NCBI GenBank assembly: GCA_030765335.1
Contig: JAVCCU010000025.1
Span: 6,784-70,783, forward strand
Direction of reading: 5' to 3'
Origin: Candidatus Kaelpia aquatica
GTDB lineage: Bacteria > Omnitrophota > Gorgyraeia > Kaelpiales > Kaelpiaceae
Length of the DNA: 64,000 nt
How positions within the stretch are numbered: the stretch's first letter is position 1; every line of letters begins with the position of its first letter. A model generated the notes under the pieces. It saw only the letters and a program-made list of their open reading frames with translations, was not told the DNA's origin and did no database searches. Positions 15,908-48,332 of this stretch are shown piece after piece. Position numbers and translations under genes: made by a program.

Positions 15908-17410
15908 ATGAAGAAACTAATTATATTATTTATTATTCCAATTCTATTCTTGTCGTTTAGTTCTTATTCTAACTCTGAGGATTTGGAGCAATGCCCACTT
16001 GTTTTGCCGAGCATTACTTCTGGTGAATATTCAAAAGTTTTTTCGGGTAACGCGTTTAACAAGAGACTAAACGAGATATTGTTAAGTCAACAATTAAATG
16101 AAATAAATTCCGAAACGCTTTATAACTCTTATCTAATTCTGGCTATTGAAGGTCTTAATGGTATGGTCGAGCAAAATACAGGCTTGCCATATGATGTAGT
16201 AAGAGTAGGAGAAGGAAATGAACTAATACCTGTAGATAAAAAAGTAAGCGGATTGGAAATTGGTTTGCAGATATTGAATTTAGTTATCCAAAGAGATTTA
16301 GAAATTATGACAGATGATCAAGTTTTATTAAAAATGGATATTGTTTTAAATTCCATAGATAAAGCAGCGAAAAAAAACGGTTTTCTTTACGATTTTGTGT
16401 CTTTACCCAGTCTTAATAAACATAAACTGAGTAACGTTTCAGATGTGTTTAACAGCGGTTATTTGGCAGCAGCTTTAATGATAGCAAATCAAGCGTTTGA
16501 AGGAACTGTAGTTAGCGATAGATGTCAGTTGATTTTAGATGAAATGGATTTTAATTTCTTTTATTCCAATAATGGCCAGTTGTACGGCGATTCTAATAAA
16601 GGATATAGCGTCGGGCAGTTTGGCAGTGAGGTGCTATTACCTGCAATAGTTGCAACGTCAACAGACAATGTGCCTGATAGTGTCATAGCGCCTAGCGACT
16701 CAATATCGATTTATCGAGAGACATATACTACTAATGAGGGGGAAGAAATTAGTGTTATTCCTGCATGGGGTGGACAGATCTGGACTATACTTATGCCGCT
16801 TCTTTTCTTGGGACCTGAGGTGGAAAATCCTGATACAGGTGAAAATGTTATTGCTGGATTTATAGAGAATGCCAGACGTTGGGTAGAAATTCAGATTGAT
16901 GTAGCAGATAAGCTTGATTTAAATATTTGGGGTTGGTCTCCTTGTGCGGCTGTTTCTTCTAAGTATATTTACGATAGTGAAAATGGAGTTCCTGGTTTAG
17001 AGCAATATGGTAATGCTGGAAATCCGCGCAATAATCCTGTTGCTATATATGTTAGTTTTTTAGCGTTAGGTGTATTGTCTGGGTATGATGTAGCAAGCCC
17101 TCAAATACAAGCTACATTAGAAAATTTAGAAGCAATGATAAGTTTAAATCCAGATGTCAATAATTCAAATTATGGATTCCTAGATTCAATAACACAAGAC
17201 GGGGAAGTTTCACCATTTATATTAGGATTGGATAAAGGCATGGAAGTTATTGGTATGTTCAATGCCTACCGAAGAAGTAGTGGTAATCAGGGAATAGAAG
17301 GTTATTTTTGGCAGTATTTGGAAGAAAACGGAATGACAGATACAGTAAGAGAACTTCTTGGTCAACGTAGTAAAGAAATTTTGACGACAATCGGCGTTGA
17401 GAATATGTAG
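15908..17410 (+). CDS. secreted hypothetical protein (signal peptide; possibly carbohydrate-active, function unknown)
   Basis: 500 aa. N-terminal signal peptide MKKLIILFIIPILFLSFSSYS. No motif I can assign. Inserted between argB and pckG with its own strong promoter. Confidence 0.5.
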   Translation: MKKLIILFIIPILFLSFSSYSNSEDLEQCPLVLPSITSGEYSKVFSGNAFNKRLNEILLSQQLNEINSETLYNSYLILAIEGLNGMVEQNTGLPYDVVRVGEGNELIPVDKKVSGLEIGLQILNLVIQRDLEIMTDDQVLLKMDIVLNSIDKAAKKNGFLYDFVSLPSLNKHKLSNVSDVFNSGYLAAALMIANQAFEGTVVSDRCQLILDEMDFNFFYSNNGQLYGDSNKGYSVGQFGSEVLLPAIVATSTDNVPDSVIAPSDSISIYRETYTTNEGEEISVIPAWGGQIWTILMPLLFLGPEVENPDTGENVIAGFIENARRWVEIQIDVADKLDLNIWGWSPCAAVSSKYIYDSENGVPGLEQYGNAGNPRNNPVAIYVSFLALGVLSGYDVASPQIQATLENLEAMISLNPDVNNSNYGFLDSITQDGEVSPFILGLDKGMEVIGMFNAYRRSSGNQGIEGYFWQYLEENGMTDTVRELLGQRSKEILTTIGVENM

Positions 17411-25736: not shown

Positions 25737-26452
25737 GATTAGATAATAGAAGTAATGATCAGTTGAGAAAAGTTAAGATTACAAAAGATTATATTGAATA
25801 TGCAGAAGGTTCATGTCTTATTGAAGTGGGCAATACCAAAGTGATCTGCACCGCTTCAGTTGAAGAAAAGGTTCCGCCTTTTTTGAGAAATTCAGGAAGC
25901 GGCTGGATTACAGCAGAATACAGCATGCTACCCAGGTCTTGTAAGAGTAGAGTTGTAAGAGAGGCCAGGAAGGGTTCAGTTGGAGGAAGAACTAGTGAGA
26001 TTCAGCGCCTGATAGGAAGATCTCTAAGAGCAGTAGTAAATTTAAAGGGTTTTGGTGAGAGGACCATCTGGATAGATTGCGATGTTGTCCAGGCAGATGG
26101 AGGGACCCGCACAGCATCTATTACAGGTGGTTTTGTTGCTCTATATTTAGCATTTCAGAAACTTATAAAAGATGAGGCTATTAAAGAGAGTCCAGTTAAA
26201 ACTTTTTTAGCTGCAGTCTCTGTTGGTTTAATAGATAAAGAGGTAATGCTTGATTTGGCATACAGTGAGGATTTTAAAGCCGATGTTGATATGAATCTTG
26301 TTATGACTGAATCTAAAGATATTGTTGAGATTCAGGGAACAGCTGAAGGAGAGCCGTTCTCAAAGAGAAAGATGGATCAGCTTGTAAAGCTAGCAGAGAA
26401 AGGAATAGAAGAGTTAATAGCTATCCAGAAGAAGACTCTAAAGGTTAAATGA
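25733..26452 (+). CDS. rph: ribonuclease PH
   Basis: 239 aa. RNase PH family ([17 protein letters not shown]). Confidence 0.9.
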
Positions 26453-27042
26453 AGAGGCTCCTCCTTGCTACTTTCAATCAAAATAAAGTCAAAGAGATTA
26501 CTCAGATTGCTGGAGATTTAAATCTTGAAATTGAATTTCTATACTTAAAAGACTTTAATAATATAAAGGAAGCCGTTGAAGACGGTAAGACATTTAAAGA
26601 TAATGCTATTAAGAAGGCAAGAGATTATTATACACAAACCGGCATTGTTACACTGGCTGAAGATTCAGGGCTTGCGGTAGATGCTTTAGATGGAGAGCCC
26701 GGAGTATATTCAGCTCGCTTCGGGGGGGAAGATAAAGATGATTATAAGAACAATCTTAAATTACTCCATATCTTAGAAGGCGTAACGGATAGAGCTGCTC
26801 ATTTTGTCTGCTCCGCTGCTTTAGCTATATCTAGGGATAACATAGAGACATTTGAAGGTATATTAGATGGTAGCATATCTTGTCATATGATGGGGAATAG
26901 CGGTTTCGGCTATGACCCTCTATTTATACCTAAAGATTGCGATAAGACGCTGGCTGAACTAGGCTCAAATATAAAGAATAAGATCTCACATAGATATAGG
27001 GCAATTAGAGATGTTTTTAACTTTATAAAGGAGAATTATTAG
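26449..27042 (+). CDS. rdgB: dITP/XTP pyrophosphatase (RdgB/HAM1 family)
   Basis: 197 aa. [16 protein letters not shown] and FGYDPLF motifs. Confidence 0.85.
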
Positions 27043-27057
27043 AATTTTGGGGGTGAC

Positions 27058-27086
27058 TTGTATTTTAAGTCTAATGTGGTATAAAT
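27058..27086 (+). promoter_or_regulatory. putative promoter (weak -35 TTGTAT, extended -10 TGGTATAAAT)
   Basis: TGGTATAAAT at 27077-27086. The -35 is only 4/6. Confidence 0.35.
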
Positions 27087-27136
27087 ATTGTATGATATGT
27101 TTAAAATGAACAAATTAAAAAAATATAGCAACCGAC

Positions 27137-27165
27137 TTGACAGCAGATTATATTATGGTATAAAT
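27137..27165 (+). promoter_or_regulatory. sigma70-type promoter TTGACA-N16-TGGTATAAAT
   Basis: TTGACA at 27137-27142 and TGGTATAAAT at 27156-27165. Confidence 0.55.
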
Positions 27166-27325
27166 ATTACAGGAGGTAGAAGGGCTTGAGAAAAAGATTA
27201 TGAAGAGAACAAAACTTAACAACATTATTCTCTGTATTATCGGTGCTCAGGAGGGGCATTGTCAAGATAGATTAAGGAATTCAAATAAACGGGTGTTTAA
27301 TTTGGTAAAAAAGGAGGAAGTTAAA

Positions 27326-27805
27326 ATGAATAAAGCATTAGTAATTCTTGTGTTAGGCATGTTGTTTATAACTCAGCTTGCATCTGCAGCAATTAATCAA
27401 ACAGGTCAAATCGCAATAAGTTTAAGGTTGGGTCAGGTGATTAACGAACGAGCTGATCAGGAAATTGAAGGTGCTCGCGAAATAAATGGAATCGCTGCAG
27501 GTATTGACGCTGGTACCATAGCGGTAACCGATAGAACTGTAGCAGAAAACGAAGGAGCGGCTTTTCTTGATTTTGTAAATAAAGTAAATGGTTTAAGCGA
27601 TGAAAAAACTAATGATGCAGTTGAAATTAAGCAATGTGCAGCTATGGCATTGAATGGTTCTGAATTAAGTTTGCCAGCTGAAGCAGTCGATGTGTTGGCT
27701 GGTAAGTGGTCTGATAATCTTGATAGCATGCTTGAGGAATTACAGAAAGCAGATCAGGTGTTAGACGATGATACGATGACTGCAGTTATGAATATACAAG
27801 AATAA
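27326..27805 (+). CDS. small secreted acidic hypothetical protein
   Basis: Start placed at ATG 27326 (AAGGAGG 8 nt upstream). Signal peptide MNKALVILVLGMLFITQLASA. The ORF track's extension to 27200 has no RBS and is not signal-like. Confidence 0.5.
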   Translation: MNKALVILVLGMLFITQLASAAINQTGQIAISLRLGQVINERADQEIEGAREINGIAAGIDAGTIAVTDRTVAENEGAAFLDFVNKVNGLSDEKTNDAVEIKQCAAMALNGSELSLPAEAVDVLAGKWSDNLDSMLEELQKADQVLDDDTMTAVMNIQE

Positions 27806-27816
27806 ATATTACGGAT

Positions 27817-27846
27817 GCTGGAGGCCTAAATAGGCCTCCAGCTTAA
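27817..27846 (+). terminator. GC-rich hairpin (possible terminator/attenuator)
   Basis: GCTGGAGGCCT-AAAT-AGGCCTCCAGC perfect 11-bp stem. The downstream tail is not T-rich, so it may be only a partial terminator. Confidence 0.4.
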
Positions 27847-27860
27847 AAGGGGAGAGTATT

Positions 27861-28009
27861 ATGAATAGAAAAAAGAAGATGTTTAAAACAAGGCAGCAAG
27901 AGTCTTTTTTTTATTCAATTAATAAAATCTTAATAAAAGATTTCATTAGCATTGTTGTTGCCTGCTCAATGCTTTTTGCTAATACTATCTGTTTGGCTGG
28001 CGATGAAGC
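27861..28009 (+). repeat. direct repeat copy 1 (149 bp) encoding the shared N-terminal leader
   Basis: Near-identical to 28738-28886. The differences cluster in one ~20 nt patch. Confidence 0.8.
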
Positions 28010-28745
28010 TGAGACAGTACATGCTGATGGTGTATTCACAACTATGCCTATGGCCCCTGCGGCCAGCGATCTTATGGGTGTATCTTTGATTGACCAGACA
28101 GAAATTGTTGCAATAGAGCGGGTAGGAGTATTGCGCATAGAAGAGTTTAATGTAGGTTTTCAAGTAACATATATGCTTAACAATGGTGCCAAGATGCTAC
28201 AAAGTTTAATCGTTTATCTTCCTATTAAGCGTGATGAAAATGAAGCGATAAGTGTCCCCGATGTCTATATCGAAACTCCTGAAATATCTGAAGCTGGGTT
28301 TCGTGGTGAATCTTGGAATATAAATCCTGGAGATGATTCTATTGGTTATCTTGAGATAGTAATTGTTAATAATGGAATTAACCTTATTACAGAGTATGCT
28401 CCGATTACTGATACGGCGATGGGTATTGAATTTACATATGATGGAGCTACGCGTGGCGTTTACAACCATGACCTTGATGATATTGATATGCTTAATCAAT
28501 GTACATCGATTGTGAAAACATTAAATTTCTTTCTCAATCTCGAAGATTTTGATAGCAACAGTGCTAGCCATAGCGTTGAAAATCCTTCGATTGATAATCC
28601 TTCGGTTGATAATGAAAGTAACTCAATTTTAGATCATTTTCAAACCTTTGCGTTGCGTTTTTTTCCTGCACTTTTTCTTGGAGGCACTTTAGCTTATGAG
28701 ATATATCTCCAACAGCAGCGTTGGATTAGGAGGAGTAATGAATAG
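27861..28745 (+). CDS. hypothetical protein with conserved basic N-terminal leader (MNRKKKMFK...ICLAGDEA)
   Basis: 294 aa. Shares its first ~50 aa almost exactly with the next gene. The rest is unique, with a PSIDNPSVDN repeat near the C-terminus. Confidence 0.55.
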   Translation: MNRKKKMFKTRQQESFFYSINKILIKDFISIVVACSMLFANTICLAGDEAETVHADGVFTTMPMAPAASDLMGVSLIDQTEIVAIERVGVLRIEEFNVGFQVTYMLNNGAKMLQSLIVYLPIKRDENEAISVPDVYIETPEISEAGFRGESWNINPGDDSIGYLEIVIVNNGINLITEYAPITDTAMGIEFTYDGATRGVYNHDLDDIDMLNQCTSIVKTLNFFLNLEDFDSNSASHSVENPSIDNPSVDNESNSILDHFQTFALRFFPALFLGGTLAYEIYLQQQRWIRRSNE

Positions 28746-28886
28746 AAAAAAGAAGATGTTTAAAGCAAGGCAGCAAGCATATTTTTTGTATTTAATTAAT
28801 AAAATCTTAATAAAAGATTTCATTAGCATTGTTGTTGCCTGCTCAATGCTTTTTGCTAATACTATCTGTTTGGCTGGCGATGAAGC
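28738..28886 (+). repeat. direct repeat copy 2 (149 bp) encoding the shared N-terminal leader
   Basis: Near-identical to 27861-28009. Confidence 0.8.
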
Positions 28887-31221
28887 AGTTGCGGATGTTG
28901 GAAAAACGGTTTTGCCGGAATTACGCGGTACCCTAGAAGATATTGCGGAATGTTTTGGTCGAGCAATAACCACAGATGATGTTACTGTAATCGAAAGAGG
29001 TGGAGAACTAGGTAACTTGCCATTTTTAAGTGAATTAGATTTACCTAATTATCTTAGTGAAGGTGCTCTCGGTAATTTACCTATTGAGATAAGGGACTAT
29101 AGTCTCGGAGACCTTAGTTTAAGTTCTATAGCTGGCATTGAAAGCAATCATCAGAGTACATTAGCGTGTACGAGAAATGGTGAACCAGAGTGGGCAATTA
29201 GGCGTAGCGTTAAAGATGGAGAAGTAAGCTTTACTGTTATGTGGGAAGAAGAGGGTGAGTATACAGAGTTGGCAGTTGATGCAGACGGCACTATAAGAAG
29301 AGTAATGCATGTAAGAACTTCTGGAGATTATAGAGGAGTATATGTTTATGAAAGTGATGATCCTGAAGGTTATGGACAGATTTTAATATCTGATTGGGAT
29401 AATTCAATGGCTAACCCAGCTAACCATAATCTCCCTTATACAGAAGAGGTTCAGGATAGATTTGATAATTATTTGGATTATCTGCCTTCTGTTGAAGAAT
29501 TTTTCAGCGATACGGCGACTTACATAGCAGAGACACCAGAAGAAGATAGAGTTAATTCCGATTTAAATGTTAGGGCAATTCCATACATTGTTTGGAATGA
29601 AAATATGGTAGATGATACTCCTGCTGATGCATTTGTGCACTCAGGGGGCACAGTGGTGTTTGCTCAAGTCGACATTGATGTATCTAAAGCGGAAGCTTTT
29701 AAATCAATCATGGATGAATTTTACAGATCTCTTGAGATTCTTGCAGGAGAAGAAGGAGGAGCAGGAGGAAGCGCAGTCGACCCTACTGTAGATGCTCAGG
29801 TAGCTTCTGAGTGGATAGGAGAATTTGCACATGATGCATTAGGAGAGGCTTTTGAAATATATGGAGTTGCAGGTGCTATGATGGCAGCCGTTCTTGATAC
29901 CTGGGCAGTTGCTACGAGTAGCTTTAGATTTTGTTTTGATTTTACCAAAGCTTATGAAACGTATACACCTGTAGTAGTTGATCCTGTGACCCTAAACTAT
30001 TACTTTGATACACCAGAAATTGATGCAACTCAGCCGCTGGATTTCAGTGATCAAGATTTTGTTGCGGGTCTATTCGGAGGCCATCTAGAAGCTGGCAATA
30101 TTGATCAAAGTGAATATGATGCCATTTTAGCGCAATATGAGTATTTCCGTCTTCTATCTTTGGATTATAACGATTCAGCTTTTGGTGAAGCTTTTGGTAC
30201 TCCAGTAGCATTCGATCCAGTTAATTATGGTGAACAGGTTGAGGTATATGTTAGCGATTTTAGAGATAATGGTAATATAGGTGCGCTAGAAAATCTTGCA
30301 GAAAGAATGGGACTGTATAAGTATGCATTTCTTACTTGGCTTGAGAAACGATATCCCCAGTTCTTGGTTGATGACGGCACTGCTATAACTGCAGGTCAGA
30401 TTAGTTTTTCTCCAAAATGGGCTCAGTTTGATGTGGCCGATGCGCTTGGTCTAGTAGCTACTATCTATACTCTTAGAGTCGAGGCGCTTAGCATGCTAGG
30501 AGGTGTATTAAAAGGAGCAGGTTGGGTTGCTAATAAGGCATCTTGGGTAAAGGTGGCTCAAGCACTAAATACATATTCCGCTTCTCTTAATGGAGCAGCT
30601 CTTACATATGCTGGATTTAGTGAATACGCCGCTCTCCGGGGTATAAGCGAGCACAAGATTTTAACAGCATTAGGCTTTGCCCCAGGGACAGGAGCTGCTT
30701 ACGGGCTTATAAGCAGGGCTGTATATTTCTCATTAGTTGGGCCTGCAACACAAGCTCTCAATGGCGATCCTATGCCTGAAACATTTCAGAGTTATCTTTA
30801 TGGTATTGGCGATCAGTTTGCAACCGGTGTTATATATTCGGGTATGTTTGGCTATGTTATGCCTCTTATGCAAGGGGGAGCTGGAGGTTCTATATTGCTT
30901 GCAAACTTAAAAAACCAAGCGATGTTTTGGGTATCAGAGATATATTTAGAAGAATACTTGCTTCAAAAAGCAGCAGAAACCATACATGATAGATATGATC
31001 CTAGGGGTTGGGATACAGCTGTTTTGTGGGATAAAGAATTTTATGGCAATTTGGCTGAAATATTTAATCCTTTGGAGATAATGATGTTGATTGGGACAGA
31101 TATAAAATCAGGCACTCATGGTGGAAGAAATACTGTACTAGCTGTGGGAGGTCTGTATGCTTTAGGATTAATAGTTGAAGGTTTGGAGCGAGCAACAGGC
31201 GTAAAGCTTTTTGGAGGTTAA
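28738..31221 (+). CDS. large hypothetical protein with the same N-terminal leader; Gly/Ala-rich hydrophobic C-terminal region
   Basis: Start at ATG 28738 (AGGAGG 4 nt upstream), overlapping the upstream gene's stop. About 827 aa. The C-terminal ~250 aa are rich in G/A with GxxxG-like motifs. Confidence 0.55.
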   Translation: MNRKKKMFKARQQAYFLYLINKILIKDFISIVVACSMLFANTICLAGDEAVADVGKTVLPELRGTLEDIAECFGRAITTDDVTVIERGGELGNLPFLSELDLPNYLSEGALGNLPIEIRDYSLGDLSLSSIAGIESNHQSTLACTRNGEPEWAIRRSVKDGEVSFTVMWEEEGEYTELAVDADGTIRRVMHVRTSGDYRGVYVYESDDPEGYGQILISDWDNSMANPANHNLPYTEEVQDRFDNYLDYLPSVEEFFSDTATYIAETPEEDRVNSDLNVRAIPYIVWNENMVDDTPADAFVHSGGTVVFAQVDIDVSKAEAFKSIMDEFYRSLEILAGEEGGAGGSAVDPTVDAQVASEWIGEFAHDALGEAFEIYGVAGAMMAAVLDTWAVATSSFRFCFDFTKAYETYTPVVVDPVTLNYYFDTPEIDATQPLDFSDQDFVAGLFGGHLEAGNIDQSEYDAILAQYEYFRLLSLDYNDSAFGEAFGTPVAFDPVNYGEQVEVYVSDFRDNGNIGALENLAERMGLYKYAFLTWLEKRYPQFLVDDGTAITAGQISFSPKWAQFDVADALGLVATIYTLRVEALSMLGGVLKGAGWVANKASWVKVAQALNTYSASLNGAALTYAGFSEYAALRGISEHKILTALGFAPGTGAAYGLISRAVYFSLVGPATQALNGDPMPETFQSYLYGIGDQFATGVIYSGMFGYVMPLMQGGAGGSILLANLKNQAMFWVSEIYLEEYLLQKAAETIHDRYDPRGWDTAVLWDKEFYGNLAEIFNPLEIMMLIGTDIKSGTHGGRNTVLAVGGLYALGLIVEGLERATGVKLFGG

Positions 31222-31225
31222 TAGA

Positions 31226-33154
31226 ATGAAGATTAATATGAGATATAATACAATTTTAATAATCACTATAGGGATGTTTTATACTATGGTTGCCTTAGAG
31301 TGTTCCGGGGCGGAGAATAATTTTTTAGATACATCTTCACTTTTCCGCTCTTTTGGCTCTGTTGTTCAAGCCGAGATTATGCTTCCTTTTAGTTCAGACG
31401 GTTCTGTTGTTGCAGATAATACTGAAAACGATGTTCCAGCAGAAGATTTGCTTTTTGCTTCAAATATAATCGAAATGTTTATAGAGGGTTCATCATTAGC
31501 GGATCTTGGCCTGGATGCATCCCAAGTCGAGCTCCTACAGTTATATTTTCCTGCATCGTTTGCTCTTATGCCATTTGCGCAAGAAAGGCCATTGAGTTTT
31601 TTGAACCCCGTCGTTTTATATGATGGCTCAAGACGCATTATTATAACTGAATCTATAGAAAGAGAGCCGATGCGTATTGATGATGCATGGGAAATGGAAT
31701 CCGTTAACGCTATCTTTGTTAATGTCAGGGATGTAGATGTTGATAGCGGGGCAATCATATACAGTACGTATGCATTTAAAGCCGAAGATTTTGACTTTTA
31801 TTATGGCAACAGCGTAGATGCGATTTTATCTTCTTTGGAGGGGAGAGTACCATATGCAATGCAATCTTACATATATAACCAGGATGATGGTTTATTTGAT
31901 GTAGAGGCTGCTTATTTTTCAGAAGCAGGAATCGACATTATTCAACAGGGAAGAGTATCACTTCATGAAGATGGTTTTGTTTGGTCTGCTGCTGAAGGAT
32001 CTTTTAAATTTTATTTTGATGAATCAAACAGTACGCTTAATATAGAAAATTATTTGCTTGATGAAATGATTAGTTCTACAGCTATTCATTGTGACGAAGA
32101 TTCTGGAAGTATAATAATAAAAGAAGGTGATTATGAAATCATCATATCTGATGTTGAGTTTTCACAATCTTTATACGATGGATCTATTGTAGCATATGGA
32201 GATGATGATGGATCAATACAAGATGGTGTATTTACTTATTATGAGATTAAGCATTGGACAACTATCATGAAGAATGATGAGTTGGTTGAATCTTGGTATG
32301 ACATATCTCATACTGCAAACGATTCTTCTTATAGAATTAAGATTTATTCTCAGAGCGCTGATAGTTCCTCCCCAGAATTTTATGCTCTTCAATATCAGGA
32401 AATAGGAGACGATGCTGCTTCTATTCGTAAATATGCTATTGAGCAAGACGAAGAAGAAGGCTTGTTGTATCGTAAGGTTTTTCATGTTTGGGATAGTTCC
32501 TATGCTCCAGGCAGTAGTTCTAGAATGTATTATATTGAAGATACGCCTGAAGATTGGCAAAATGCAAGCTGGTTTTTGCAAAGCGTTATCGATGAGCATT
32601 GTCAGCTTATATGTCAATCCGATACTGTTGTTTCTGCGGGAAAGGATGGTGATATTGTTATAACAAATAATGCATTTTACAACAGCGTCACTATAACAAG
32701 TGATTATGACGAGAGTATTCCTGGAGGGTTTCTTCAGCTTATAGAGAGTTACAGAGAATATCTATCCTCTAACCATCTTTTGAGTCGACCTGAGGTTGAA
32801 GAGGTTATAAATATAACCACTACCAAGGTGTTGTATCAAGATATTCGTTTGCCATATACGAGTCAGTTTTTAGAAATGATAGATAAAAATACAGGCTCAA
32901 ATCATCTTAGTAGTTTAGAAAATAAATCCGAGATTAAGATAAATATTGTCAATGAGGTTGCACGAGCATATCTAGAAAGAGGTATAAGTTTCTTTGGTTC
33001 TGCTTGGTCTTTACCTTCAGGGTTTACTCAGTTTTCTTTCGAATTTAGAAGCCTTATTCATAATACAGTTGTTCCTGAGTTGCAGGGCATGGTCCCTTAT
33101 GAATGGGATTATGACGAGGGGATACTAATTTTGTATCCTGATAGTGATAGTTAA
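31226..33154 (+). CDS. secreted highly acidic hypothetical protein
   Basis: Start at ATG 31226 (GGAGG upstream). Signal peptide MKINMRYNTILIITIGMFYTMVALECSGA. About 642 aa, D/E/S-rich, no recognisable domain. Confidence 0.5.
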   Translation: MKINMRYNTILIITIGMFYTMVALECSGAENNFLDTSSLFRSFGSVVQAEIMLPFSSDGSVVADNTENDVPAEDLLFASNIIEMFIEGSSLADLGLDASQVELLQLYFPASFALMPFAQERPLSFLNPVVLYDGSRRIIITESIEREPMRIDDAWEMESVNAIFVNVRDVDVDSGAIIYSTYAFKAEDFDFYYGNSVDAILSSLEGRVPYAMQSYIYNQDDGLFDVEAAYFSEAGIDIIQQGRVSLHEDGFVWSAAEGSFKFYFDESNSTLNIENYLLDEMISSTAIHCDEDSGSIIIKEGDYEIIISDVEFSQSLYDGSIVAYGDDDGSIQDGVFTYYEIKHWTTIMKNDELVESWYDISHTANDSSYRIKIYSQSADSSSPEFYALQYQEIGDDAASIRKYAIEQDEEEGLLYRKVFHVWDSSYAPGSSSRMYYIEDTPEDWQNASWFLQSVIDEHCQLICQSDTVVSAGKDGDIVITNNAFYNSVTITSDYDESIPGGFLQLIESYREYLSSNHLLSRPEVEEVINITTTKVLYQDIRLPYTSQFLEMIDKNTGSNHLSSLENKSEIKINIVNEVARAYLERGISFFGSAWSLPSGFTQFSFEFRSLIHNTVVPELQGMVPYEWDYDEGILILYPDSDS

Positions 33155-33320
33155 GTTAATGAGTAAAAAGGTTTTATTTGTGTATAGCCGTGCTCAGAAT
33201 TTTAGAAGAATCATTAGTCTCTTAGTGTACTTAGTGGTACAATAATTTCAAATTTAAAAGAAAAATTGAATCTGTATTGTTTATTGAATTTTGATATTTT
33301 TTTAGAACAATGATATTGTT

Positions 33321-34709
33321 ATGAAAATAAATGCATTATTTTTTGTTGCTATAGTTTGTTTTTTTATAAATTTAAAATTTGCTCATAGCTCCCAAAATAC
33401 TCAAGAATATAAAGTGCTTTTGGAAGAGTATGGTTTGAATTCATACCTCACGACAGATAATATAGATAGGTTGCAAGATTTTTCCAAATATGCAAAGTCT
33501 AAAGGAAAATTGCTAGACCTTTATCTGTTAAATTATTCTGAATTCCTAAAATTGTGTAAGAGCAATTTCTTTTTTACCATAGATGAAGAAGAGCCTAGTC
33601 AAGTATGCTTTTATGATAAAGAGATAGATGATATTGATAAACTCTACAATGCTTGTGGTGGATATATTGTTTCTCTCCCATTGGTAAATATAGTAGCACG
33701 GCATGTTTACCAAGATAGCAAAGGTAGTCTATCCCAAAATAACATTTTTGTAATATATCTTTTGCACGAAGGTGTCAATTTTTCTTTATTGCAACATTTA
33801 TTGGATAATATTATTGAAAAAGCAGGAGGGCCTTCTGCAGTTGTTTATATAGATGAGCTTGGGTTAATACCGGAAGACTCTGTCAATAGGTATAGCCAGG
33901 CTTACAAGATAAGCGAAAAAGAATCATTCGAAAAAATAAAAAATTCTCTTAAGAACGATATAAAATCAATAAGTATGGGCCATACTATTTATGATTCAAA
34001 CAAGCTTTATGCTCAGATATATAGCTATTTCGCAAAACATAAAATCGACTCTAATATGGAAGATCTTTCTTATGATAATTGGAAAAATATAGTTGCATTT
34101 GATAAGTTGAATTTATGGAGAAAAAGTGCGCGTTTGTTTTTAATGGGTGCGGTGAGAGCATGTATAGAATCTTCTCAAGAGTTTGTGTTTGGATTCATGT
34201 TGTACAATAATATAATGCGTGATGCTAATTTTTCAAATCAACTAAAAGCATTATTGTCTGATAAAAGTGGCACTACATTAATTACTATCCGTGGTCTTGG
34301 TCATTTTGGATTTGAAAAAAAATTGATAGAGGATGCAAATGTAAGTGTTTGTATTTTAGGCGACGAAGGAGACTCTTTCTTTACGCTAACAGCGCTCCGT
34401 GAAAGGTATATGATTTATCAAGTTAATGAAGTGATTTTAAGTAATGAAGAGGAAGATAGATTGCTATTAAATAGCGTACTTAGTTTTCTTATGTTTAATT
34501 ATTTGATAAAATATGGGATAGAAGACAATTACTATGATGCAATGAAAAGTACGATAGCATTATTAACGCCTCTATCTTTAGCACAGCTATATGCACTTCA
34601 AAGCAAACTATTTTATGAGTTGCAGGCAGGAAATTTCTCTAAAAATAATATCTATGAATTTATTTACAATTGGTGTAAAAATCAAACATTTATAAAAGAA
34701 GAGAACTAA
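33321..34709 (+). CDS. secreted hypothetical protein (very AT-rich gene)
   Basis: 462 aa. Signal peptide MKINALFFVAIVCFFINLKFAHS. Composition markedly more AT-rich than its neighbours. Confidence 0.5.
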   Translation: MKINALFFVAIVCFFINLKFAHSSQNTQEYKVLLEEYGLNSYLTTDNIDRLQDFSKYAKSKGKLLDLYLLNYSEFLKLCKSNFFFTIDEEEPSQVCFYDKEIDDIDKLYNACGGYIVSLPLVNIVARHVYQDSKGSLSQNNIFVIYLLHEGVNFSLLQHLLDNIIEKAGGPSAVVYIDELGLIPEDSVNRYSQAYKISEKESFEKIKNSLKNDIKSISMGHTIYDSNKLYAQIYSYFAKHKIDSNMEDLSYDNWKNIVAFDKLNLWRKSARLFLMGAVRACIESSQEFVFGFMLYNNIMRDANFSNQLKALLSDKSGTTLITIRGLGHFGFEKKLIEDANVSVCILGDEGDSFFTLTALRERYMIYQVNEVILSNEEEDRLLLNSVLSFLMFNYLIKYGIEDNYYDAMKSTIALLTPLSLAQLYALQSKLFYELQAGNFSKNNIYEFIYNWCKNQTFIKEEN

Positions 34710-34871
34710 TCCTTTGGAATTATTTTTGCATCACTCACCAAGTTTTATTAAGCAGTTGTTGTAATTATACGAACATAGGCTGGGTTTCGTTAAAAAAACT
34801 AAATCAAGTGATTCTATTGTTTTTTTTGTTTACTTTTTTACCCCCATAACTTTAAAAAGTAGTGATAAAAT

Positions 34872-34901
34872 TTGACAGCACTTATTTTGTATGGTACAAA
34901 T
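34872..34901 (+). promoter_or_regulatory. sigma70-type promoter TTGACA-N17-TGGTACAAAT
   Basis: TTGACA at 34872-34877 and TGGTACAAAT at 34892-34901, upstream of the PilZ gene. Confidence 0.5.
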
Positions 34902-34958
34902 ATATTAGGTAAGAAAGGTGGTAAAGCAGAAATCAAGTTTATATAAGGAGCGGGCAAA

Positions 34959-35306
34959 TTGAACTACGATGGAATGGAAAGAAGGCAGTGGACTCGGGTC
35001 GATATGAATGTTCCCCTTAAATTCAGAGAAGTAGGTGAATTCAGCCGTTCTCCGCTTGATTCAGAGACAAGAGATATAAGTGAAGGTGGCATAAGATTTG
35101 CGACTGATAAGTTTCTTCCAAAAGATAGTAAGCTCGTTATAAACATAGATTTCCATGATATTCCAGCTGTTAAAGCAACTGCTAAAGTTTCTTGGTCGGT
35201 AAGAGATTCTCATACCAGCATGTATGAGATAGGTGTTGAGTTTGATACTATTCCTTCAGAAGCAAGAGTTCAACTTTCCAATATCGTCAGAAAAAACTTA
35301 AATTAA
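34959..35306 (+). CDS. PilZ domain protein (putative c-di-GMP receptor)
   Basis: 115 aa. RRQWTRV (RxxxR) and DISEGGIRF (DxSxGG) PilZ motifs. TTG start 7 nt after AAGGAG. Confidence 0.7.
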   Translation: MNYDGMERRQWTRVDMNVPLKFREVGEFSRSPLDSETRDISEGGIRFATDKFLPKDSKLVINIDFHDIPAVKATAKVSWSVRDSHTSMYEIGVEFDTIPSEARVQLSNIVRKNLN

Positions 35307-36334
35307 GATCTAGATCTATTCTTTCTCTCTAACTCTTTTTTCATCTCCAACTCTTTCAGTCTTTTTCTTCTATCCAAATCGTATTTGTCTATTTTCTTAT
35401 TCAAAGCCTGGCGAGATATTCCAAGCAGATTTGCAACCTTAGATTTATTCCACTTAAGTTCATATAGTATCTCAGTCAATATCTTCTGTTCATATATCTC
35501 AACTACGCCTTTAAGCGTCTTATCTTTTACTGCCACTAGTTTAAGGTTTACTCCTCCAGACCTTAACTTTTCAGACAGGTCGCTGGGCAGTATATGAGGC
35601 CCCTCTGATAGTATTACAGCTCTCTCTATCTCATGCTCTAATTCTCGTATATTGCCCGGCCAGTCATACTCTAGGAGATATTTTATTGCATCTGGCACCA
35701 TGTTTTTTATGGATTTCTTATCATTCTTATCGGCATATAGTCGCAGGAAATGCTCTGCTAAGACCGGGATGTCGTCTCTCTTGTCTCTTAGCGGTGGAAT
35801 TGGGATATCTATGACACAAAGCCTGTAAAAGAGGTCTCTTCTAAACCCGCCTCTCTCTACCTCTTTTTCCAGATTTCTATTTGTTGCTGCTACTATTCTT
35901 ACATCTACAGATATATCACTTGTTGCTCCGACTCTCTTTATAGTCCCTTCCTGTAAGACTCTTAAGAGCTTAGATTGCAGGCCTGGTGAAACCTCGCTTA
36001 CTTCATCTAAAAAGAAGGTTCCTTTATCGGCTGCTTCAAATAAACCTTTCTTCTCAGCTATTGCTCCGGTAAATGAGCCTCTGATATGACCGAATAGTTC
36101 TGATTCAAGTAATGTCTCAGTTAGGGCTGAGCAGTTAACAGCTATAAAAGGAGCATTTCTTCTTTTGGAGTGATAATGAAGCGCTTTAGCGATCAGCTCT
36201 TTACCTGTTCCTGTCTCACCTCTTATTAAAATCGTACTGTTTGTATTTACAACCTTTTCCATGATTCTGTAGACTTCTTTCATGTGACTGTTTGTACCTA
36301 TTATCTCTGGAAATGGATTCTGATATTCTTCCAT
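35303..36334 (-). CDS. sigma-54-dependent transcriptional activator (AAA+ and Fis-type HTH only; no N-terminal receiver/sensor domain)
   Basis: 343 aa. GETGTGKE Walker A, ESELFGH, the GAFTGA-region variant GSFTGA and a C-terminal HTH. The stop codon overlaps the PilZ gene stop convergently. Confidence 0.85.
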   Translation of the reverse strand: MEEYQNPFPEIIGTNSHMKEVYRIMEKVVNTNSTILIRGETGTGKELIAKALHYHSKRRNAPFIAVNCSALTETLLESELFGHIRGSFTGAIAEKKGLFEAADKGTFFLDEVSEVSPGLQSKLLRVLQEGTIKRVGATSDISVDVRIVAATNRNLEKEVERGGFRRDLFYRLCVIDIPIPPLRDKRDDIPVLAEHFLRLYADKNDKKSIKNMVPDAIKYLLEYDWPGNIRELEHEIERAVILSEGPHILPSDLSEKLRSGGVNLKLVAVKDKTLKGVVEIYEQKILTEILYELKWNKSKVANLLGISRQALNKKIDKYDLDRRKRLKELEMKKELERKNRSRS

Positions 36335-36336
36335 AC

Positions 36337-37683
36337 TTAACTCCTCCTTAACTTTGTAGGCAGTATTTTAAGTCTTTCTCTGTATTTAGCTACTGTCCTT
36401 CTTGCAATAGTGATTCCATCCTCTTTCAAAAGCTGCGTAATCTTATTGTCGCTAAGAGGTTTCTTGGAATCTTCCGCTACAACTATATCTTTTATCTTCT
36501 CCTTGATTAATTTACTTGAAATGCCTTTCACATTGCTTGAGAAGAAATCTCTTAATTCAAATATCCCAGAAGGTGTATCGATATATTTGCCATTTACAGT
36601 CCTTGAGATTGTGGATTCATCTAATCCAGTGCTCTCTGAAACCCTATTTAGAGTTAAGGGTTTGAGTCCGGCCTTTCCCTTTTTAAAGAACTCTTTCTGG
36701 TGATTTATAATAAAATCAGTAATTTTGATTATAGTTTTTCCTCTCTGCTCCATTGCCTGAATAAGCTCTTTCGTTGTTTTAAGCTTATCTTTAAGGTATC
36801 TCTTTGTCTCTTCAGGCGTTGAGGGATCCTTTAATATCTTAAGATACTGCTTATTTATCCTTATTTTTGGAATATCTCTCTTATTGGTTCTAATCTGATA
36901 TTTGCCGTCTGGTGCTATATCTAAAAATACTTCTGGTATTGCATAGTTGGGGAATGCGCTAGTATAATTTCTGCCTGGTTTTGGATCCAAGCTTTTCAGC
37001 ATCTTTAAGAACTCTTCCATCTTCTTATCGGTTATCTTTAGCTCTTTCTCTATCTTCTTGTAATTATGTGTGGCAAGCTCCTCCAGGAACCGCTCTATTA
37101 TCTGCTGGAATATTTTTTCTTTTAACCCTTTCCTTGCAAGCTGTATGGTTAGACATTCTTTTAGATCTCTGGCTCCGATTCCAGCAGGTTCAAAATCCTG
37201 AACTATTTTTAAAATTTGTTCACATTTTTTATTTGAAACTTTTAATTTCTCGGCTATCTCAAGCAGGGCTATTTCAAGATATCCGTTGGGGTTTAAATTT
37301 CCTATTATCTCTTCACCTATTAAAAGATTATTAACGCTTATCCTCTGCATATGGAGCTGTTTTAAGAGGTGTTCTTGGAGTGTCTCAGGTTTTGTGACTA
37401 GACTTTCAATGTGCGCTCTTTTTTTAGCGTCTTCCTGACCAAACTTTTCAGACCTCTTCTCCCAGATATTGTCTTCTTGAAATTCAAATTTCTCTTCATC
37501 GGGTATCTCGGGTACTTTCTCTTCTTCGATCTCAAGAAGCGGGTTCTCTTCGAACTCTTCTTCTAGTTTTTCTTTAAGCTCTGTGATTGGCACTTGAAGA
37601 AGGTTTAATAGCTGCCAGAATTGAGGCAACAGCTTAAGTTTTAGCGCCAAGTGCTGTTCAAGGCGGGGGATCATTCTTTCCAT
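36337..37683 (-). CDS. rpoN: RNA polymerase sigma-54 factor
   Basis: 448 aa. C-terminal RpoN box ARRTVAKYR and an acidic region I/II. Confidence 0.9.
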   Translation of the reverse strand: MERMIPRLEQHLALKLKLLPQFWQLLNLLQVPITELKEKLEEEFEENPLLEIEEEKVPEIPDEEKFEFQEDNIWEKRSEKFGQEDAKKRAHIESLVTKPETLQEHLLKQLHMQRISVNNLLIGEEIIGNLNPNGYLEIALLEIAEKLKVSNKKCEQILKIVQDFEPAGIGARDLKECLTIQLARKGLKEKIFQQIIERFLEELATHNYKKIEKELKITDKKMEEFLKMLKSLDPKPGRNYTSAFPNYAIPEVFLDIAPDGKYQIRTNKRDIPKIRINKQYLKILKDPSTPEETKRYLKDKLKTTKELIQAMEQRGKTIIKITDFIINHQKEFFKKGKAGLKPLTLNRVSESTGLDESTISRTVNGKYIDTPSGIFELRDFFSSNVKGISSKLIKEKIKDIVVAEDSKKPLSDNKITQLLKEDGITIARRTVAKYRERLKILPTKLRRS

Positions 37684-45395: not shown

Positions 45396-45487
45396 GGAGA
45401 GGTGTGAGAGCGGCCGAATCAAAACGACTGGAAATCGTTTGACTTGAGAAATTAGGTCCCTGGGTTCAAATCCCAGCCTCTCCGCCA
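45396..45487 (+). tRNA. tRNA-Ser (anticodon GGA), CCA-encoded
   Basis: Acceptor GGAGAGG...CCTCTCC-G-CCA. Anticodon stem-loop AACGA-CTGGAAA-TCGTT gives anticodon GGA. Long variable arm. T-arm CTGGGTTCAAATCCCAG. 92 nt. Confidence 0.85.
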
Positions 45488-45521
45488 TTAATCCTTCCTC
45501 AAATATAATTTTCTTATCAAT

Positions 45522-45550
45522 TTGACTAGATGTATTTGTATGGTATAAAT
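45522..45550 (+). promoter_or_regulatory. sigma70-type promoter TTGACT-N16-TGGTATAAAT
   Basis: TTGACT at 45522-45527 and TGGTATAAAT at 45541-45550, upstream of the repeat-protein gene. Confidence 0.55.
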
Positions 45551-45579
45551 ATATTATCAATTGATAAAGAGGGGGTTAA

Positions 45580-46231
45580 TATGAAATGTAATAAGCTTAG
45601 TGTTGTTTTGGTGTGTTTTATTCTCATAGGTTCTGTTGTTTTTATTCCTGGTCATGCTTATGCCAGAAGAATAAAAGACGATAGTTCAGAACTATCAACA
45701 GAAGATTTAATTCGTATTTCTAATGCTGTTGATTATTTTATTGAACAAGACAGCATGAGAGTCGAAATGTCAACAGAAAATAGAGAAAAATATATAGATT
45801 ATCTACAGAAATGTAATCTTCAAACCTCAGAAAGGAATATACAGTTGTTTGCAAGATTGAACAAGTCATCTGTTGATGCAGGTTTTAATCTTGAACATAA
45901 TGCACCTTCTTATCCTGGAAATACATTTGATGTTCTTAAATCTCTGACAGAAACAGGCATCGTAACCGAAGATAATCTACCTCAATTAATAAATTTAGGC
46001 ATAACATCTGCTGAAGCAGGTTTTCATCCTTGGCATACGTTCAGAGCTCTTGAATTTCTGGCAAAAACAGGTATCTTAATCGAAACTAATCTACCTTAGG
46101 TAATAGATTTAGGCATAGCATCTGCTAAACTACGTCTTAAGCCTTGGGATATATTCAACGTTCTTAAATCTTTGGCAGAATTAGGTGTCTTAACAGAAGA
46201 TAATCTATCTTTGATAATTCTCAAGGATTAA
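45580..46231 (+). pseudogene. secreted tandem-repeat protein interrupted by an in-frame TAG (CAG->TAG within a repeat unit)
   Basis: Signal peptide MKCNKLSVVLVCFILIGSVVFIPGHAYA. ~35-aa repeats (…NLPQLINLGITSAEAGF…). After TAG at 46097-99 the same frame continues the repeat (VIDLGIASAKLRLKPWDIFNVLKSLAELGVLTEDNLSLIILKD) to TAA at 46229-31. TAG is a genuine stop elsewhere in the window. Confidence 0.55.
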
Positions 46232-46437
46232 TAAATAATATAGCTATACCAAATGAGTATGATCAAGTTCTTATATCTACAACTGAAGTAGCTCAATCCA
46301 ATAGGCCTCAGATACGAACAGAGATAAAACGATTAATTGCTAATAAAATTATTATTACTCAGAATGTTCAAGAAGAATTTCCTACAAACAGTATTTACGA
46401 TATAACTGAAGTAGCTCTCTACTGGGAAAAATAACCT

Positions 46438-46608
46438 TGTGCCCAAACTGTGCCCATCTTACATCAAAACATCCGTATGCAAACGTAGGCAAACGTAACC
46501 ATTCGCACTCGATAAATCCTTTACAAAGCAGTGGTTTGCAGCATAGTTTGTTGATATATAAGGAGTTAAGTGATTTAGCTTGATAGAATCCCAGCCTCTC
46601 CGCCATTG
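46438..46608 (+). repeat. islet-end repeat R1 (~170 bp) ending in an exact copy of the tRNA-Ser 3' end
   Basis: About 85% identical over ~125 bp to 48694-48820. Terminates in AATCCCAGCCTCTCCGCCATT. Confidence 0.6.
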
Positions 46609-47002
46609 TTGACGCTCAGTCGAACCCTGTTCCTCAAGAAGGAGTGGAGTTCGCTGTTTTTGGGGCTCTTTCAGTGGTAAGCTATGAACCTTGATTATCT
46701 TGATAAGAGCTTTTAGAAGGCTTATTTGAGCCTCTAGTGGGGGCGGCGAGGTGCGTTCTTTCAGCGACCTTAAAATAAAAAATCGATGTCGTGGTCGTAG
46801 GGAAAAATCGAGAAATTGCTAAAATCAGCGTAATATGTTGTATTTATTGGAGTTATAGCTATTTTAAGCGTGCTCTATAGATTCAAAATAGCCCGAAAAC
46901 CGGACATTTGCCATGTCGTATTATCGTGTTTTGGTGAGTTACAGCAAGTGTGAAGAAAGTATATTCTGGGGTAATTTTCTACACACCCAATGTAATCAAA
47001 GT

Positions 47003-47131
47003 GATAATAACAAAACCTCTTATTATCATTTAACGCCATAAGTGACAATAAAAGATTTTCTTATTACCATTTGGGGCGGCTTGCCATGTTTGAAGATAGA
47101 AATAATAATAAAAATTTTCTTATTGACATTT
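47003..47131 (+). promoter_or_regulatory. three imperfect direct repeats (core TCTTATTRNCATTT) upstream of the Fic gene, the last overlapping its -35
   Basis: 47003-47031, 47044-47072 and 47101-47131. The third contains TTGACA (47123-28) of a TTGACA-N17-TAATAT promoter (-10 at 47146-51). Confidence 0.45.
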
Positions 47132-47213
47132 AAGTGTGTAAATGATAATATATGTCCATATTCAGGTTGAATATTAATAGCGTAGGTTTGTTAAGAATAA
47201 TTAGAGGTGACAT

Positions 47214-48332
47214 ATGTTTAAAGCTGGAAATTACAAGCAACAATATGAATACAAAAGTTTTTTGCCATCGTTAGTTAACGTTGATTATCAGTGGGAGGAT
47301 AGGCAAATTGTTGTTTTATTAGAAAACGCTATGCGTTATCTGGGGGAACTCAATGCCTATTCAACGCTAGTTCCGGACGTGGATTTTTTTATTCAAATGC
47401 ATGTGGCAAAAGAAGCTACGACGTCCAGTCGTATTGAAGGGACAAGAACCAATATTGACGAAGTTGTTTTGCCTGAGAATGAAATCAGTCCTGAAAAACG
47501 TGATGACTGGGCAGAGGTTCAAAATTATATCAAGGCAATGAATTTTGCTATTGATGAGCTTGATAAATTGCCTTTATCGATGAGGCTGCTCAAAGAGACG
47601 CATAAGAGATTGCTCTCAGGTGTAAGAGGTCATCATAAACTTCCGGGAGAAGTAAGAAGAAGCCAAAACTGGATTGGCGGATCAAGCTTAAAAGATGCTT
47701 TTTTCGTTCCGCCACACCATGAAGATTTACCGGATTTGTTGACCGACCTTGAAAAATTTTGGCACAGCAAGGAAATCAATCTTCCTCGTTTAATTCGGGT
47801 TGCCATCAGCCATTATCAATTTGAAACGATTCACCCTTTTCTGGACGGTAATGGCAGGGCAGGACGACTTCTTATAACTTTGCAATTAGTTGATATGGAC
47901 ATATTGAATAAGCCTTGTCTCTATCTTTCAGATTTTTTTGAAAGAAATAAGGGGTCATACTATGATTCATTGAGTGTAGCAAGAGCTTCAAATGATCTTG
48001 ACCAGTGGATAAAGTTTTTTCTTTCAGGAGTCATTGATACAGCTAAGAATGGGAAGGAAACTTTAGAAACCATTGTTAAGCTCAGAAAACAATATGATGA
48101 CAAAATTATAACTATGGGAAGAAAAGCCAAGCCAGCTCAAAAACTGCTTTTGTTCCTTTTTTCGCATCCAATTGTTTCTATCGGGCAGGTCTCTGATCAT
48201 TTAGGAGTAGGATTTTCCGCGGGCGGAAGATTAATAGCGGATTTTCAAAGAGTCGGATTTTTAAAAGAAGTGACAGGTTTTTCTAGAAATAGGTTGTTTG
48301 CGCTGTCGGAGTATTTATCGTTGTTTAAATAG
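47214..48332 (+). CDS. Fic family protein (AMPylase-type) with intramolecular inhibitory motif
   Basis: 372 aa. Fic motif [12 protein letters not shown] and N-terminal inhibitory [ST]xxxE[GN] motif SSRIEG (class II arrangement). RBS AGAGGTG upstream. Confidence 0.85.

Follow-up and report, generated by a model that had tools for sequence, protein, structure and literature searches.

Which function is served by five consecutive genes for predicted exported proteins that match no described family and lie between rdgB and a PilZ gene of Candidatus Kaelpia aquatica? The question arises from a window of 64,000 nucleotides (nt), i.e., positions 6,784 to 70,783 of contig JAVCCU010000025.1 (all coordinates below count from the first nucleotide of this window). 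It belongs to a metagenome-assembled genome from Ace Lake, Antarctica, of this member of the phylum Omnitrophota (PVC group). Candidatus Kaelpia aquatica (hereafter K. aquatica) was described from anoxic Ace Lake (PMC8542988). The five genes, named p1 to p5 here, form a discrete, co-oriented operon of predicted exported proteins outside any described family. The explanation that we tentatively prefer, with slightly less than even confidence, is that of a chromosomal, Omnitrophota-restricted operon encoding a set of extracytoplasmic proteins with p3 and p5 as its core, for which we infer a role at the cell surface or in cell contact.

A discrete operon of predicted exported proteins

Between rdgB (26449-27042) and the PilZ gene (34959-35306), the plus strand carries five consecutive open reading frames (ORFs), all annotated as hypothetical by NCBI (p1 is P9X27_04390 and p3 is identical to P9X27_04400). 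The first, p1 (27326-27805), encodes a precursor of 159 amino acids with a classic Sec signal peptide (cleavage between …LASA and A) and an acidic mature part with an isoelectric point (pI) of 4.1. In p2 (27861-28745; 294 amino acids), a leader shared with p3 precedes an acidic body, and the C-terminal tail is weakly hydrophobic, with basic residues after it. This tail is too marginally hydrophobic for a confident C-terminal membrane anchor, with a Kyte-Doolittle peak of 1.26 versus 1.98 in the ortholog of a sister lineage that is described below. The predicted exported p3 (28738-31221; 827 amino acids) is the founder of a very small family, p4 (31226-33154; 642 amino acids) is predicted to be exported and very acidic (pI 4.1), and the AT-rich p5 (33321-34709; 462 amino acids), likewise predicted to be exported, is a candidate hydrolase of the TIKI/EreA/ChaN superfamily (H149, E179, R300 and H328). 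With pI values of 4.1-5.2, p1 to p5 are among the most acidic proteins in the window.

All five proteins start with a basic region and a hydrophobic, signal-like segment. Elsewhere in the window, the same crude criterion is positive for approximately seven of the 48 other ORFs, including one Rossmann-fold false positive. The ATG of p3 overlaps the stop codon of p2 by 8 nt and that of p4 lies 4 nt past the stop codon of p3, both with a GGAGG-type ribosome-binding site ahead. None of the five proteins has a Pfam or NCBIfam match at E ≤ 0.1 or any match in PHROGs or PADLOC, and searches of PDB sequences with a p3 profile, a p5 profile and p4 yielded chance matches only. The homologs introduced below gave nothing in Pfam, NCBIfam, PHROGs and PADLOC either, bar a weak hit of P0004 to the PADLOC candidate family PDC-M72B (E 2e-4). 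A first-pass annotation of this DNA had listed five consecutive signal-peptide proteins between rdgB and the PilZ gene, among them a small acidic protein and a very acidic one of about 640 amino acids, with translationally coupled starts and no known family. Each of these points is confirmed, the coupling for p2, p3 and p4, and the lack of a family across Pfam, NCBIfam, PHROGs, PADLOC and the PDB sequences.

The p3 family and its putative partner p5

Based on the searches performed, p3 represents a new, very small family that so far occurs in or near Omnitrophota. A word-indexed search of 5.8 billion proteins, which is not exhaustive as it missed the p4 of the sister lineage, returned only p3 itself and its sister ortholog for p3, and only the query itself for p4. 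A HMMER scan of 1.84 billion representative proteins with a p3 profile (E ≤ 1e-3) gave four real relatives, including the p2 proteins of both lineages, which match via the leader only. The relatives of p3 comprise P0006, a partial protein of Candidatus Saelkia tenebricola, which belongs to another Ace Lake genus of Omnitrophota (E 7e-30), P0009 from an unbinned contig (E 8.5e-10) and a partial gene on the unbinned contig L007 (pairwise E 2e-42). A pattern scan of 185,579 species genomes produced one p3-family match, on a Saelkia contig, and the same type of scan of JGI metagenomes only added further contigs of the sister lineage. K. aquatica and its sister were not recovered from the 185,579-species collection, although p3 of K. 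aquatica fits the pattern; apparently, the species representative lacks the contig with p3 or the species is not represented.

In an alignment of five family members, conservation is low in the N-terminal half but sharp in a C-terminal module of about 300 residues (30295-31218, plus strand; approximately residues 520-827), a segment enriched in Gly, Ala and aromatic side chains for which a helical structure is predicted. The module is marked by the motifs LYKxAFxTWLxxYPQ, GQL, YGxxSRAxxF, GxQFxxGxxY(S/A)G, SE(I/V)xxEExxL and EFxxNxxExxNPxEI, and seven of its Glu residues are invariant across the five members. The two distant HMMER matches score best in its distal part (profile positions 644-807). 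The sequence GGAGGS occurs twice in p3, at residues 340-345 and 713-718, and the equivalent sites are Gly-rich in most other members. Residues 560-827 contain 13% Gly and 13% Ala and several moderately hydrophobic stretches (Kyte-Doolittle 1.0-1.5). After the leader, no 19-residue window of p3 reaches a Kyte-Doolittle mean of 1.6 or more, and on a Hessa-type scale no such window past the leader falls below 4 kcal/mol in four of the five members, while the leader itself scores 0.1. We therefore rejected a polytopic membrane protein (FtsX/MacB-like or YhgE/Pip/EsaA-like), since the C-terminal segments are insufficiently hydrophobic for insertion by the translocon. As no window reaches this threshold, p3 more plausibly crosses the membrane in full and carries an amphipathic helical domain. 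Hence, of the Gly/Ala-rich hydrophobic C-terminus that had been ascribed to the protein of about 830 amino acids, the Gly/Ala richness is real, but integration into the membrane is not predicted.

For p5, the word-indexed search found the protein itself and a single homolog, P0004, with 31% identity. The gene for P0004 begins 31 nt downstream of the p3 homolog on contig L007, with no p4 in between. This arrangement suggests that p3 and p5 are a conserved pair and that p4, which was seen in Kaelpia only, is a Kaelpia-specific insert. On contig L009, a p3-family gene is preceded by a gene for an exported helical protein of 218 amino acids and followed by one for an exported protein of more than 450 amino acids, neither with a detectable relation to p1, p2, p4 or p5. 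Judging from these contigs, the same operon arrangement reappears with changing partner genes.

The two p5 proteins share the conserved blocks FxIYxxH149, YIDE179LGLIPE, GFMLxNxxR300DxNF and TIR324GLxH328xGFE, in which H149, E179 (with E150/D and D178), R300 and H328 are invariant. Strands are predicted in p5 at residues 142-147, 172-177 and 318-325, and the four invariant residues H149, E179, R300 and H328 are found just behind predicted strands. The catalytic residues of the TIKI superfamily, located where core strands end, are two His, one or more Glu and a conserved Arg, e.g., E3900, H3902, E3930, R4001 and H4030 in RRSP (spacings of 28 and 29) and H85 and E113 in Bcr135 (spacing of 28) (PMC6254334). 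The corresponding distances in p5 are 30 residues (H149-E179) and 28 residues (R300-H328); p5 thus displays the TIKI catalytic constellation with a spacing like that of RRSP and Bcr135, the order in the first motif being H-E and not E-x-H. The resemblance to the TIKI/erythromycin esterase (EreA/B/C, Bcr135/136)/ChaN/TraB-PrgY/RRSP superfamily therefore lies in the His…Glu and Arg…His spacing after predicted strands of an alpha/beta core, and in the fact that many members are extracytoplasmic or toxin-borne hydrolases. Unlike these members, p5 has H-[ED] as its first motif, a segment between Glu and Arg that is about 50 residues longer, and a core flanked by helical stretches of about 130 and 110 residues. 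Because of the conserved blocks and the two spacings, we lean slightly towards p5 being a very divergent hydrolase of the TIKI/erythromycin-esterase/ChaN type, on mixed evidence for the fold.

The shared leader, selection and regulatory elements

That two of the proteins share a leader had been noted in the first-pass annotation, and holds true: the first 50 codons of p2 (27861-28009) and of p3 (28738-28886), both on the plus strand, form a repeat of 149 nt that begins exactly at each ATG and encodes an extended signal sequence. In K. aquatica, 45 of the 50 residues (90%) and 96.0% of the nucleotides are identical. The leader consists of an n-region of 27 residues, eight of which are basic (MNRKKKMFKARQQ…), a normal hydrophobic core and a cleavage site between …CLA and G, and its length far exceeds that of the other three signal sequences, in p1, p4 and p5. 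When p2, p3 and p4 were compared by profile-profile tests, the p2/p3 leader was the only similarity detected, and p2 and p3 are otherwise unrelated. The sister lineage, approximately 80% identical at the nucleotide level and recovered on short Ace Lake contigs, has 99.3% identity between its p2 and p3 leaders (a 169-nt repeat with 99.4% identity), versus 82-85% between orthologous leaders of the two lineages. Moreover, species-specific substitutions in the leader are common to both copies within each genome. The higher identity within than between genomes and these shared substitutions reveal concerted evolution, in which the leader copies are homogenised by gene conversion.

Extended signal peptides (ESPR) are known from large type V exoproteins, i.e., autotransporters and TpsA proteins. 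The p2/p3 leader resembles them in its length of about 46-50 residues, its long conserved basic n-region, ordinary hydrophobic core and A-x-A-like cleavage site, and its attachment to a large exoprotein. It differs in that it has no sequence similarity to the ESPR motif and is common to two unrelated adjacent genes in which it is homogenised by gene conversion, and no beta-barrel or TpsB partner was found in the block with Pfam and NCBIfam. Type V marker domains (C-terminal beta-barrel, TpsB/Omp85, TPS/beta-helix) are absent from the five proteins and their neighbours, and the C-terminus of p3 is predicted to be helical, albeit by a low-confidence model; type V exoproteins were therefore rejected. 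Some loci shuffle cassettes at a shared 5' segment, such as the ‘orphan’ modules of polymorphic toxins and surface-antigen cassettes. The block is like these loci in that p2 and p3 have a near-identical 5' segment under concerted evolution and are unrelated beyond it, and in that the gene order around the leader differs between close lineages. Unlike them, the block shares the export leader only, both genes are complete with their own ribosome-binding sites, and neither silent cassettes nor a recombinase are seen at the block. The rearrangements could also partly be assembly ambiguity across the 169-nt repeat.

Indeed, assemblies frequently terminate inside the leader repeat. The order p1-p2-p3-p4-p5 of K. 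aquatica is backed by contigs that span it (L002, L017). In the sister lineage, p1 adjoins a leader followed by p3 (L012), p4 adjoins a leader followed by either p2 (L013) or p3 (L011), and p2 adjoins p3 (L005, L006), which means that at least one leader-bearing gene lies downstream of p4. Together, these five contigs show cyclic junctions (p3-p4-p2-p3, plus p1-p3 and p4-p3), which may stem from strain recombination, from chimeric assembly or from a 5.3-kb unit repeated in tandem.

Comparison of the two lineages also provides a measure of evolutionary rate. Orthologs are 67% identical in amino acid sequence for p1, 51% for p2, 71% for p3 and 76% for p4, with ratios of nonsynonymous to synonymous substitution rates (dN/dS) of 0.42, 0.63 (the highest of the four), 0.34 and 0.28, respectively, at a dS of about 0.5 and with no housekeeping baseline for this pair of lineages. 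These ratios indicate that p1 to p4 are under purifying selection that is relaxed or partly diversifying, as is common in exposed proteins.

The block appears to have its own promoter. A sigma-70-type promoter-like site with an extended -10 element (27137-27164, plus strand; TTGACA, 16 nt, TGgTATAAA) lies upstream of p1, and the sister lineage (contig L012) retains both hexamers at the same distance. A box of this kind, TGGTATAAATATT, occurs twice upstream of p1, at 27072-27089 and 27151-27168 (79 nt apart), and a similar TTGACA-N17-TGGTACAAAT is present upstream of the PilZ gene (34874-34905). From this recurrence, extended -10 promoters of this type seem to be common in the genome. The start of p1 is most likely at 27326, with AAGGAGG 8 nt upstream, rather than at the in-frame ATG at 27200 that corresponds to the annotators' form of 201 amino acids: in the extension (27200-27325), the differences from the sister are distributed as 6/10/10 over the codon positions and thus show no coding-type substitution pattern. 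The resulting 5' leader of p1 of about 160 nt contains a block of 33 nt (GTGCTCAGGAGGGGCATTGTCAAGATAGATTAA; 27243-27275, plus strand) that is 100% identical in both Kaelpia lineages, while the intergenic DNA around it is only 81% identical (27034-27330 aligned to L012). A hairpin is predicted at this block, for which covariation is uninformative with two sequences, and the block may act as an RNA regulator or be bound by a protein. Between p1 and p2, an RNA hairpin of 11 base pairs without a U-tract (27817-27842, plus strand) has a folding free energy of -23.4 kcal/mol (z of -4.5 versus shuffled sequences) and is kept in the sister lineage with one compensatory change from G-C to U-A. A function as attenuator or as stabiliser of the mRNA 3' end is possible. 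Rfam gave no match in the region 26.4-35.4 kb, and a scan for intrinsic terminators returned nothing meaningful.

Downstream of the block, a sigma-54 activator of 343 amino acids (35303-36334, minus strand) sits between the stand-alone PilZ gene and rpoN (34959-37683). It is PspF-like, and it lacks an N-terminal sensor or receiver domain since its AAA+ domain starts at residue 11. Control of the block by this neighbouring activator and rpoN is unsupported and was rejected, because matches to sigma-54 promoters occur in the window at chance frequency (24 found, 20 expected). One sigma-54-like -24/-12 element, TGGAAT-N5-TTGCA (34715-34730), is located right after the p5 stop codon and about 230 nt upstream of the PilZ gene, but matches as good as this one are about as frequent in the window as chance predicts.

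Origin and role of the block

The features described above can be joined into a provisional scheme. p3 would be exported by Sec via its unusually long basic leader and translocated whole, and p5 would work on the extracytoplasmic side, where it would either process or mature p3 or share its target. As gene conversion keeps their leaders near-identical, p2 and p3 presumably take one export route with the same timing. p1, set apart by the conserved hairpin, and p4 would be lineage-specific accessory parts. The likeliest role would be at the cell surface or in cell-cell contact (adhesion, envelope remodelling or attack), in a phylum whose members are suspected predators or parasites with host-dependent lifestyles (PMC10066038). 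It seems rather improbable that p3 and p5 are, more specifically, the core of an undescribed Omnitrophota-specific contact or attack module, in which the p3 module would act on the envelope of a host or prey, p5 would mature or assist it and the leader would let specificity genes reshuffle.

Several observations weigh against the preferred scheme of an extracytoplasmic set around p3 and p5. Signal peptides were called with hydropathy rules rather than with a trained predictor. The linkage of p3 and p5 rests on a single additional contig (L007), the gene after the p3 homolog on contig L009 is not p5-like, and p5 was not found in the contigs of the sister lineage. As a further difference from the TIKI superfamily, neither p5, its core fragment nor P0004 has a Pfam match even at E ≤ 10, and PDB sequences gave no relevant match to the p5/P0004 profile, leaving the TIKI reading without profile support. 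The AlphaFold2 model of p5 is poor (mean predicted local distance difference test score, pLDDT, of 45), and Foldseek searches with it against PDB and BFVD returned nothing significant, with only generic alpha/beta folds in PDB. The AlphaFold2 model of p3, built from a two-sequence alignment, is unusable (pLDDT of 29) and its helices are merely indicative.

Codon composition had been described as mosaic in the first-pass annotation. The window has a guanine-cytosine (GC) content of about 37% and a mean GC at third codon positions (GC3) of 0.317 (standard deviation of 0.037). GC3 of all five genes is uniform at 0.25-0.28, i.e., about 1-1.8 standard deviations below the mean. The higher GC of p3 (0.40) arises at the first and second codon positions and is thus due to its Gly/Ala-rich amino acid content, not to codon usage. 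p1 and p2 are average (0.37-0.38) and not GC-rich. Only p5 is truly AT-rich, as had been remarked for the protein of 462 amino acids, with a GC of 0.304, about 3 standard deviations below the mean. Consequently, the supposed mosaic is real for p5 but is not accompanied by a codon-usage signal, and composition fails as an argument for a foreign origin for four of the five genes. The term ‘accessory’, applied earlier to the cluster, is apt insofar as the two lineages do not have the same gene content and order and these families are hardly found anywhere else. It is not apt within the species, as the block is fixed and 100% identical in all retrieved K. aquatica contigs, i.e., eleven further ones (L001-L004, L015-L021) from several Ace Lake samples, and p1 of the sister lineage likewise adjoins the end of rdgB, with about 80% nucleotide identity.

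These data bear on two readings of where the block comes from. Orphan ORFs in a metagenome-assembled genome, on contigs that frequently end at a repeat, could be artefacts of assembly or annotation rather than real genes. This is effectively refuted by the length of the ORFs and their ribosome-binding sites, by dN/dS values below one in all four testable genes, by the recovery of the same sequence in independent assemblies of several samples and by homologs in other genera that share conserved motifs. Alternatively, the block could be a horizontally acquired genomic island, inserted between rdgB and the PilZ gene as cargo of a mobile element. It does break a run of housekeeping genes, with queDCE and the ordinary genes for fumarase, RNase PH and RdgB upstream and equally ordinary genes for PilZ, the sigma-54 activator, RpoN and sugar-nucleotide enzymes downstream; the five genes have GC3 values in the lower portion of those seen across the window, with the GC of p5 about 3 standard deviations below the mean; the families are extremely patchy; and the sister lineage has a different gene order. 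Yet no integrase, transposase, adjacent tRNA or flanking direct (att-like) repeats were found at the block, scans of viral contigs and a tblastn search of plasmids with p3 and p5 gave no relatives, and the high GC of p3 is accounted for by its amino acid content. Furthermore, the position of p1 next to rdgB in the sister and a dS of about 0.5 that is alike across four genes favour vertical inheritance since the split, and the identified relatives all fall within one phylum. A mobile-element origin of the block is very unlikely.

As to function, S-layer proteins are typically acidic, exported, domain-less, lineage-restricted and fast-evolving, which is precisely how the proteins of the block present themselves. 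They might accordingly be structural components of the envelope, such as an S-layer-like coat or a lattice associated with the outer membrane, and serve as lineage-specific housekeeping. This is the main rival of a p3-p5 contact set, and would agree with the invariance of the block across all K. aquatica contigs, its strong promoter-like site, the lack of mobile-element features and the hairpin past p1, which could raise the yield of one component. It is nonetheless unlikely, as Pfam and NCBIfam reveal neither an SLH nor another described S-layer or anchoring domain in p1 to p5, which comprise five different proteins instead of one dominant one and include a hydrolase-like partner (p5) that is unexpected in a coat; that GC3 is slightly below the window mean and not shifted as in highly expressed genes is weak evidence in the same direction. 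The first-pass annotation had likened the cluster to an effector or toxin-delivery locus. In such a locus, the helical module of p3 would attack membranes as a colicin- or Bcl-2-like pore former, p5 would activate it or shield the producing cell, and roles as chaperone, anchor or adaptor would fall to p1, p2 and p4. Helical membrane-inserting domains are known from pore-forming colicins, the T domain of diphtheria toxin and the Bcl-2 family, and p3 is like them in having a C-terminal, predicted all-helical, Gly/Ala-rich module with moderately hydrophobic helix-GGAGGS-helix segments. These are not hydrophobic enough for insertion during translation, which would suit a protein that is first soluble and enters the membrane later, and the variable N-terminal half could be a receptor-binding part. 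The high dN/dS, the presence of TIKI-fold domains in the bacterial toxins RRSP, PMT and HopBA1 (PMC6254334) and the suspicion that Omnitrophota are predators or parasites (PMC10066038) also fit a toxin. However, p3 has no sequence match to any of these pore-forming families, its segments are less hydrophobic than a colicin hairpin in four of the five members, and the seven invariant Glu among the many invariant acidic residues of its module fit a binding or catalytic site more than a pore. p5 is exported and is no membrane immunity protein, and there is none at the block. No toxin, immunity, Rhs, LXG, PAAR or similar domain was detected in p1 to p5, nor was any component of a secretion machine, hallmark of a mobile element or sign of export past the periplasm found. 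Finally, the polarity of the p3 family (variable N-terminus, conserved C-terminus) is the reverse of that of polymorphic toxins, and a polymorphic toxin or toxin-immunity system was rejected on this ground and for want of marker domains. The toxin-delivery claim is thus not borne out, and a toxin with partners appears improbable. What does stand from the first-pass annotation is the proposal of an undescribed exported set, as the operon is discrete, outside any described family, equipped with its own promoter-like site and evolving at a dN/dS of 0.28-0.63.

Elsewhere in the window, a tRNA-Ser(GGA) gene (45396-45487) directly precedes an exported orphan ORF of 189 amino acids (45530-46099), whose GC3 of 0.19 is the minimum in the window, and a Fic/DOC-family gene (47214-48332) comes next. 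An insertion hot spot would be a more fitting description of this region (45396-48332) than of the block of p1 to p5. A further exported protein of 500 amino acids (15908-17410) is acidic (pI 4.2), has no Pfam match and is unrelated to p1 to p5, to which none of the other exported orphans in the window (starting at 15908, 45530, 51709 and 54370) is related.

Well-delimited operons without an assigned function are common in the genomes of candidate phyla, and the present block is a candidate for the surface or interaction biology of Omnitrophota. Members of this phylum are uncultivated and ultra-small and are suspected of depending or preying on other cells, and of the proteins that would mediate such interactions, little more than Tad/type IV pili and giant ORFs has been recognised (PMC10066038). 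The locus offers a compact, testable set that consists of the family module of p3, a candidate hydrolase with four mutable residues and an unusual export leader, common to two genes, whose copies gene conversion keeps alike. If the proteins act on other cells, they would constitute a new kind of interaction module; if they prove to be abundant surface components, they would define the cell surface of Kaelpia.

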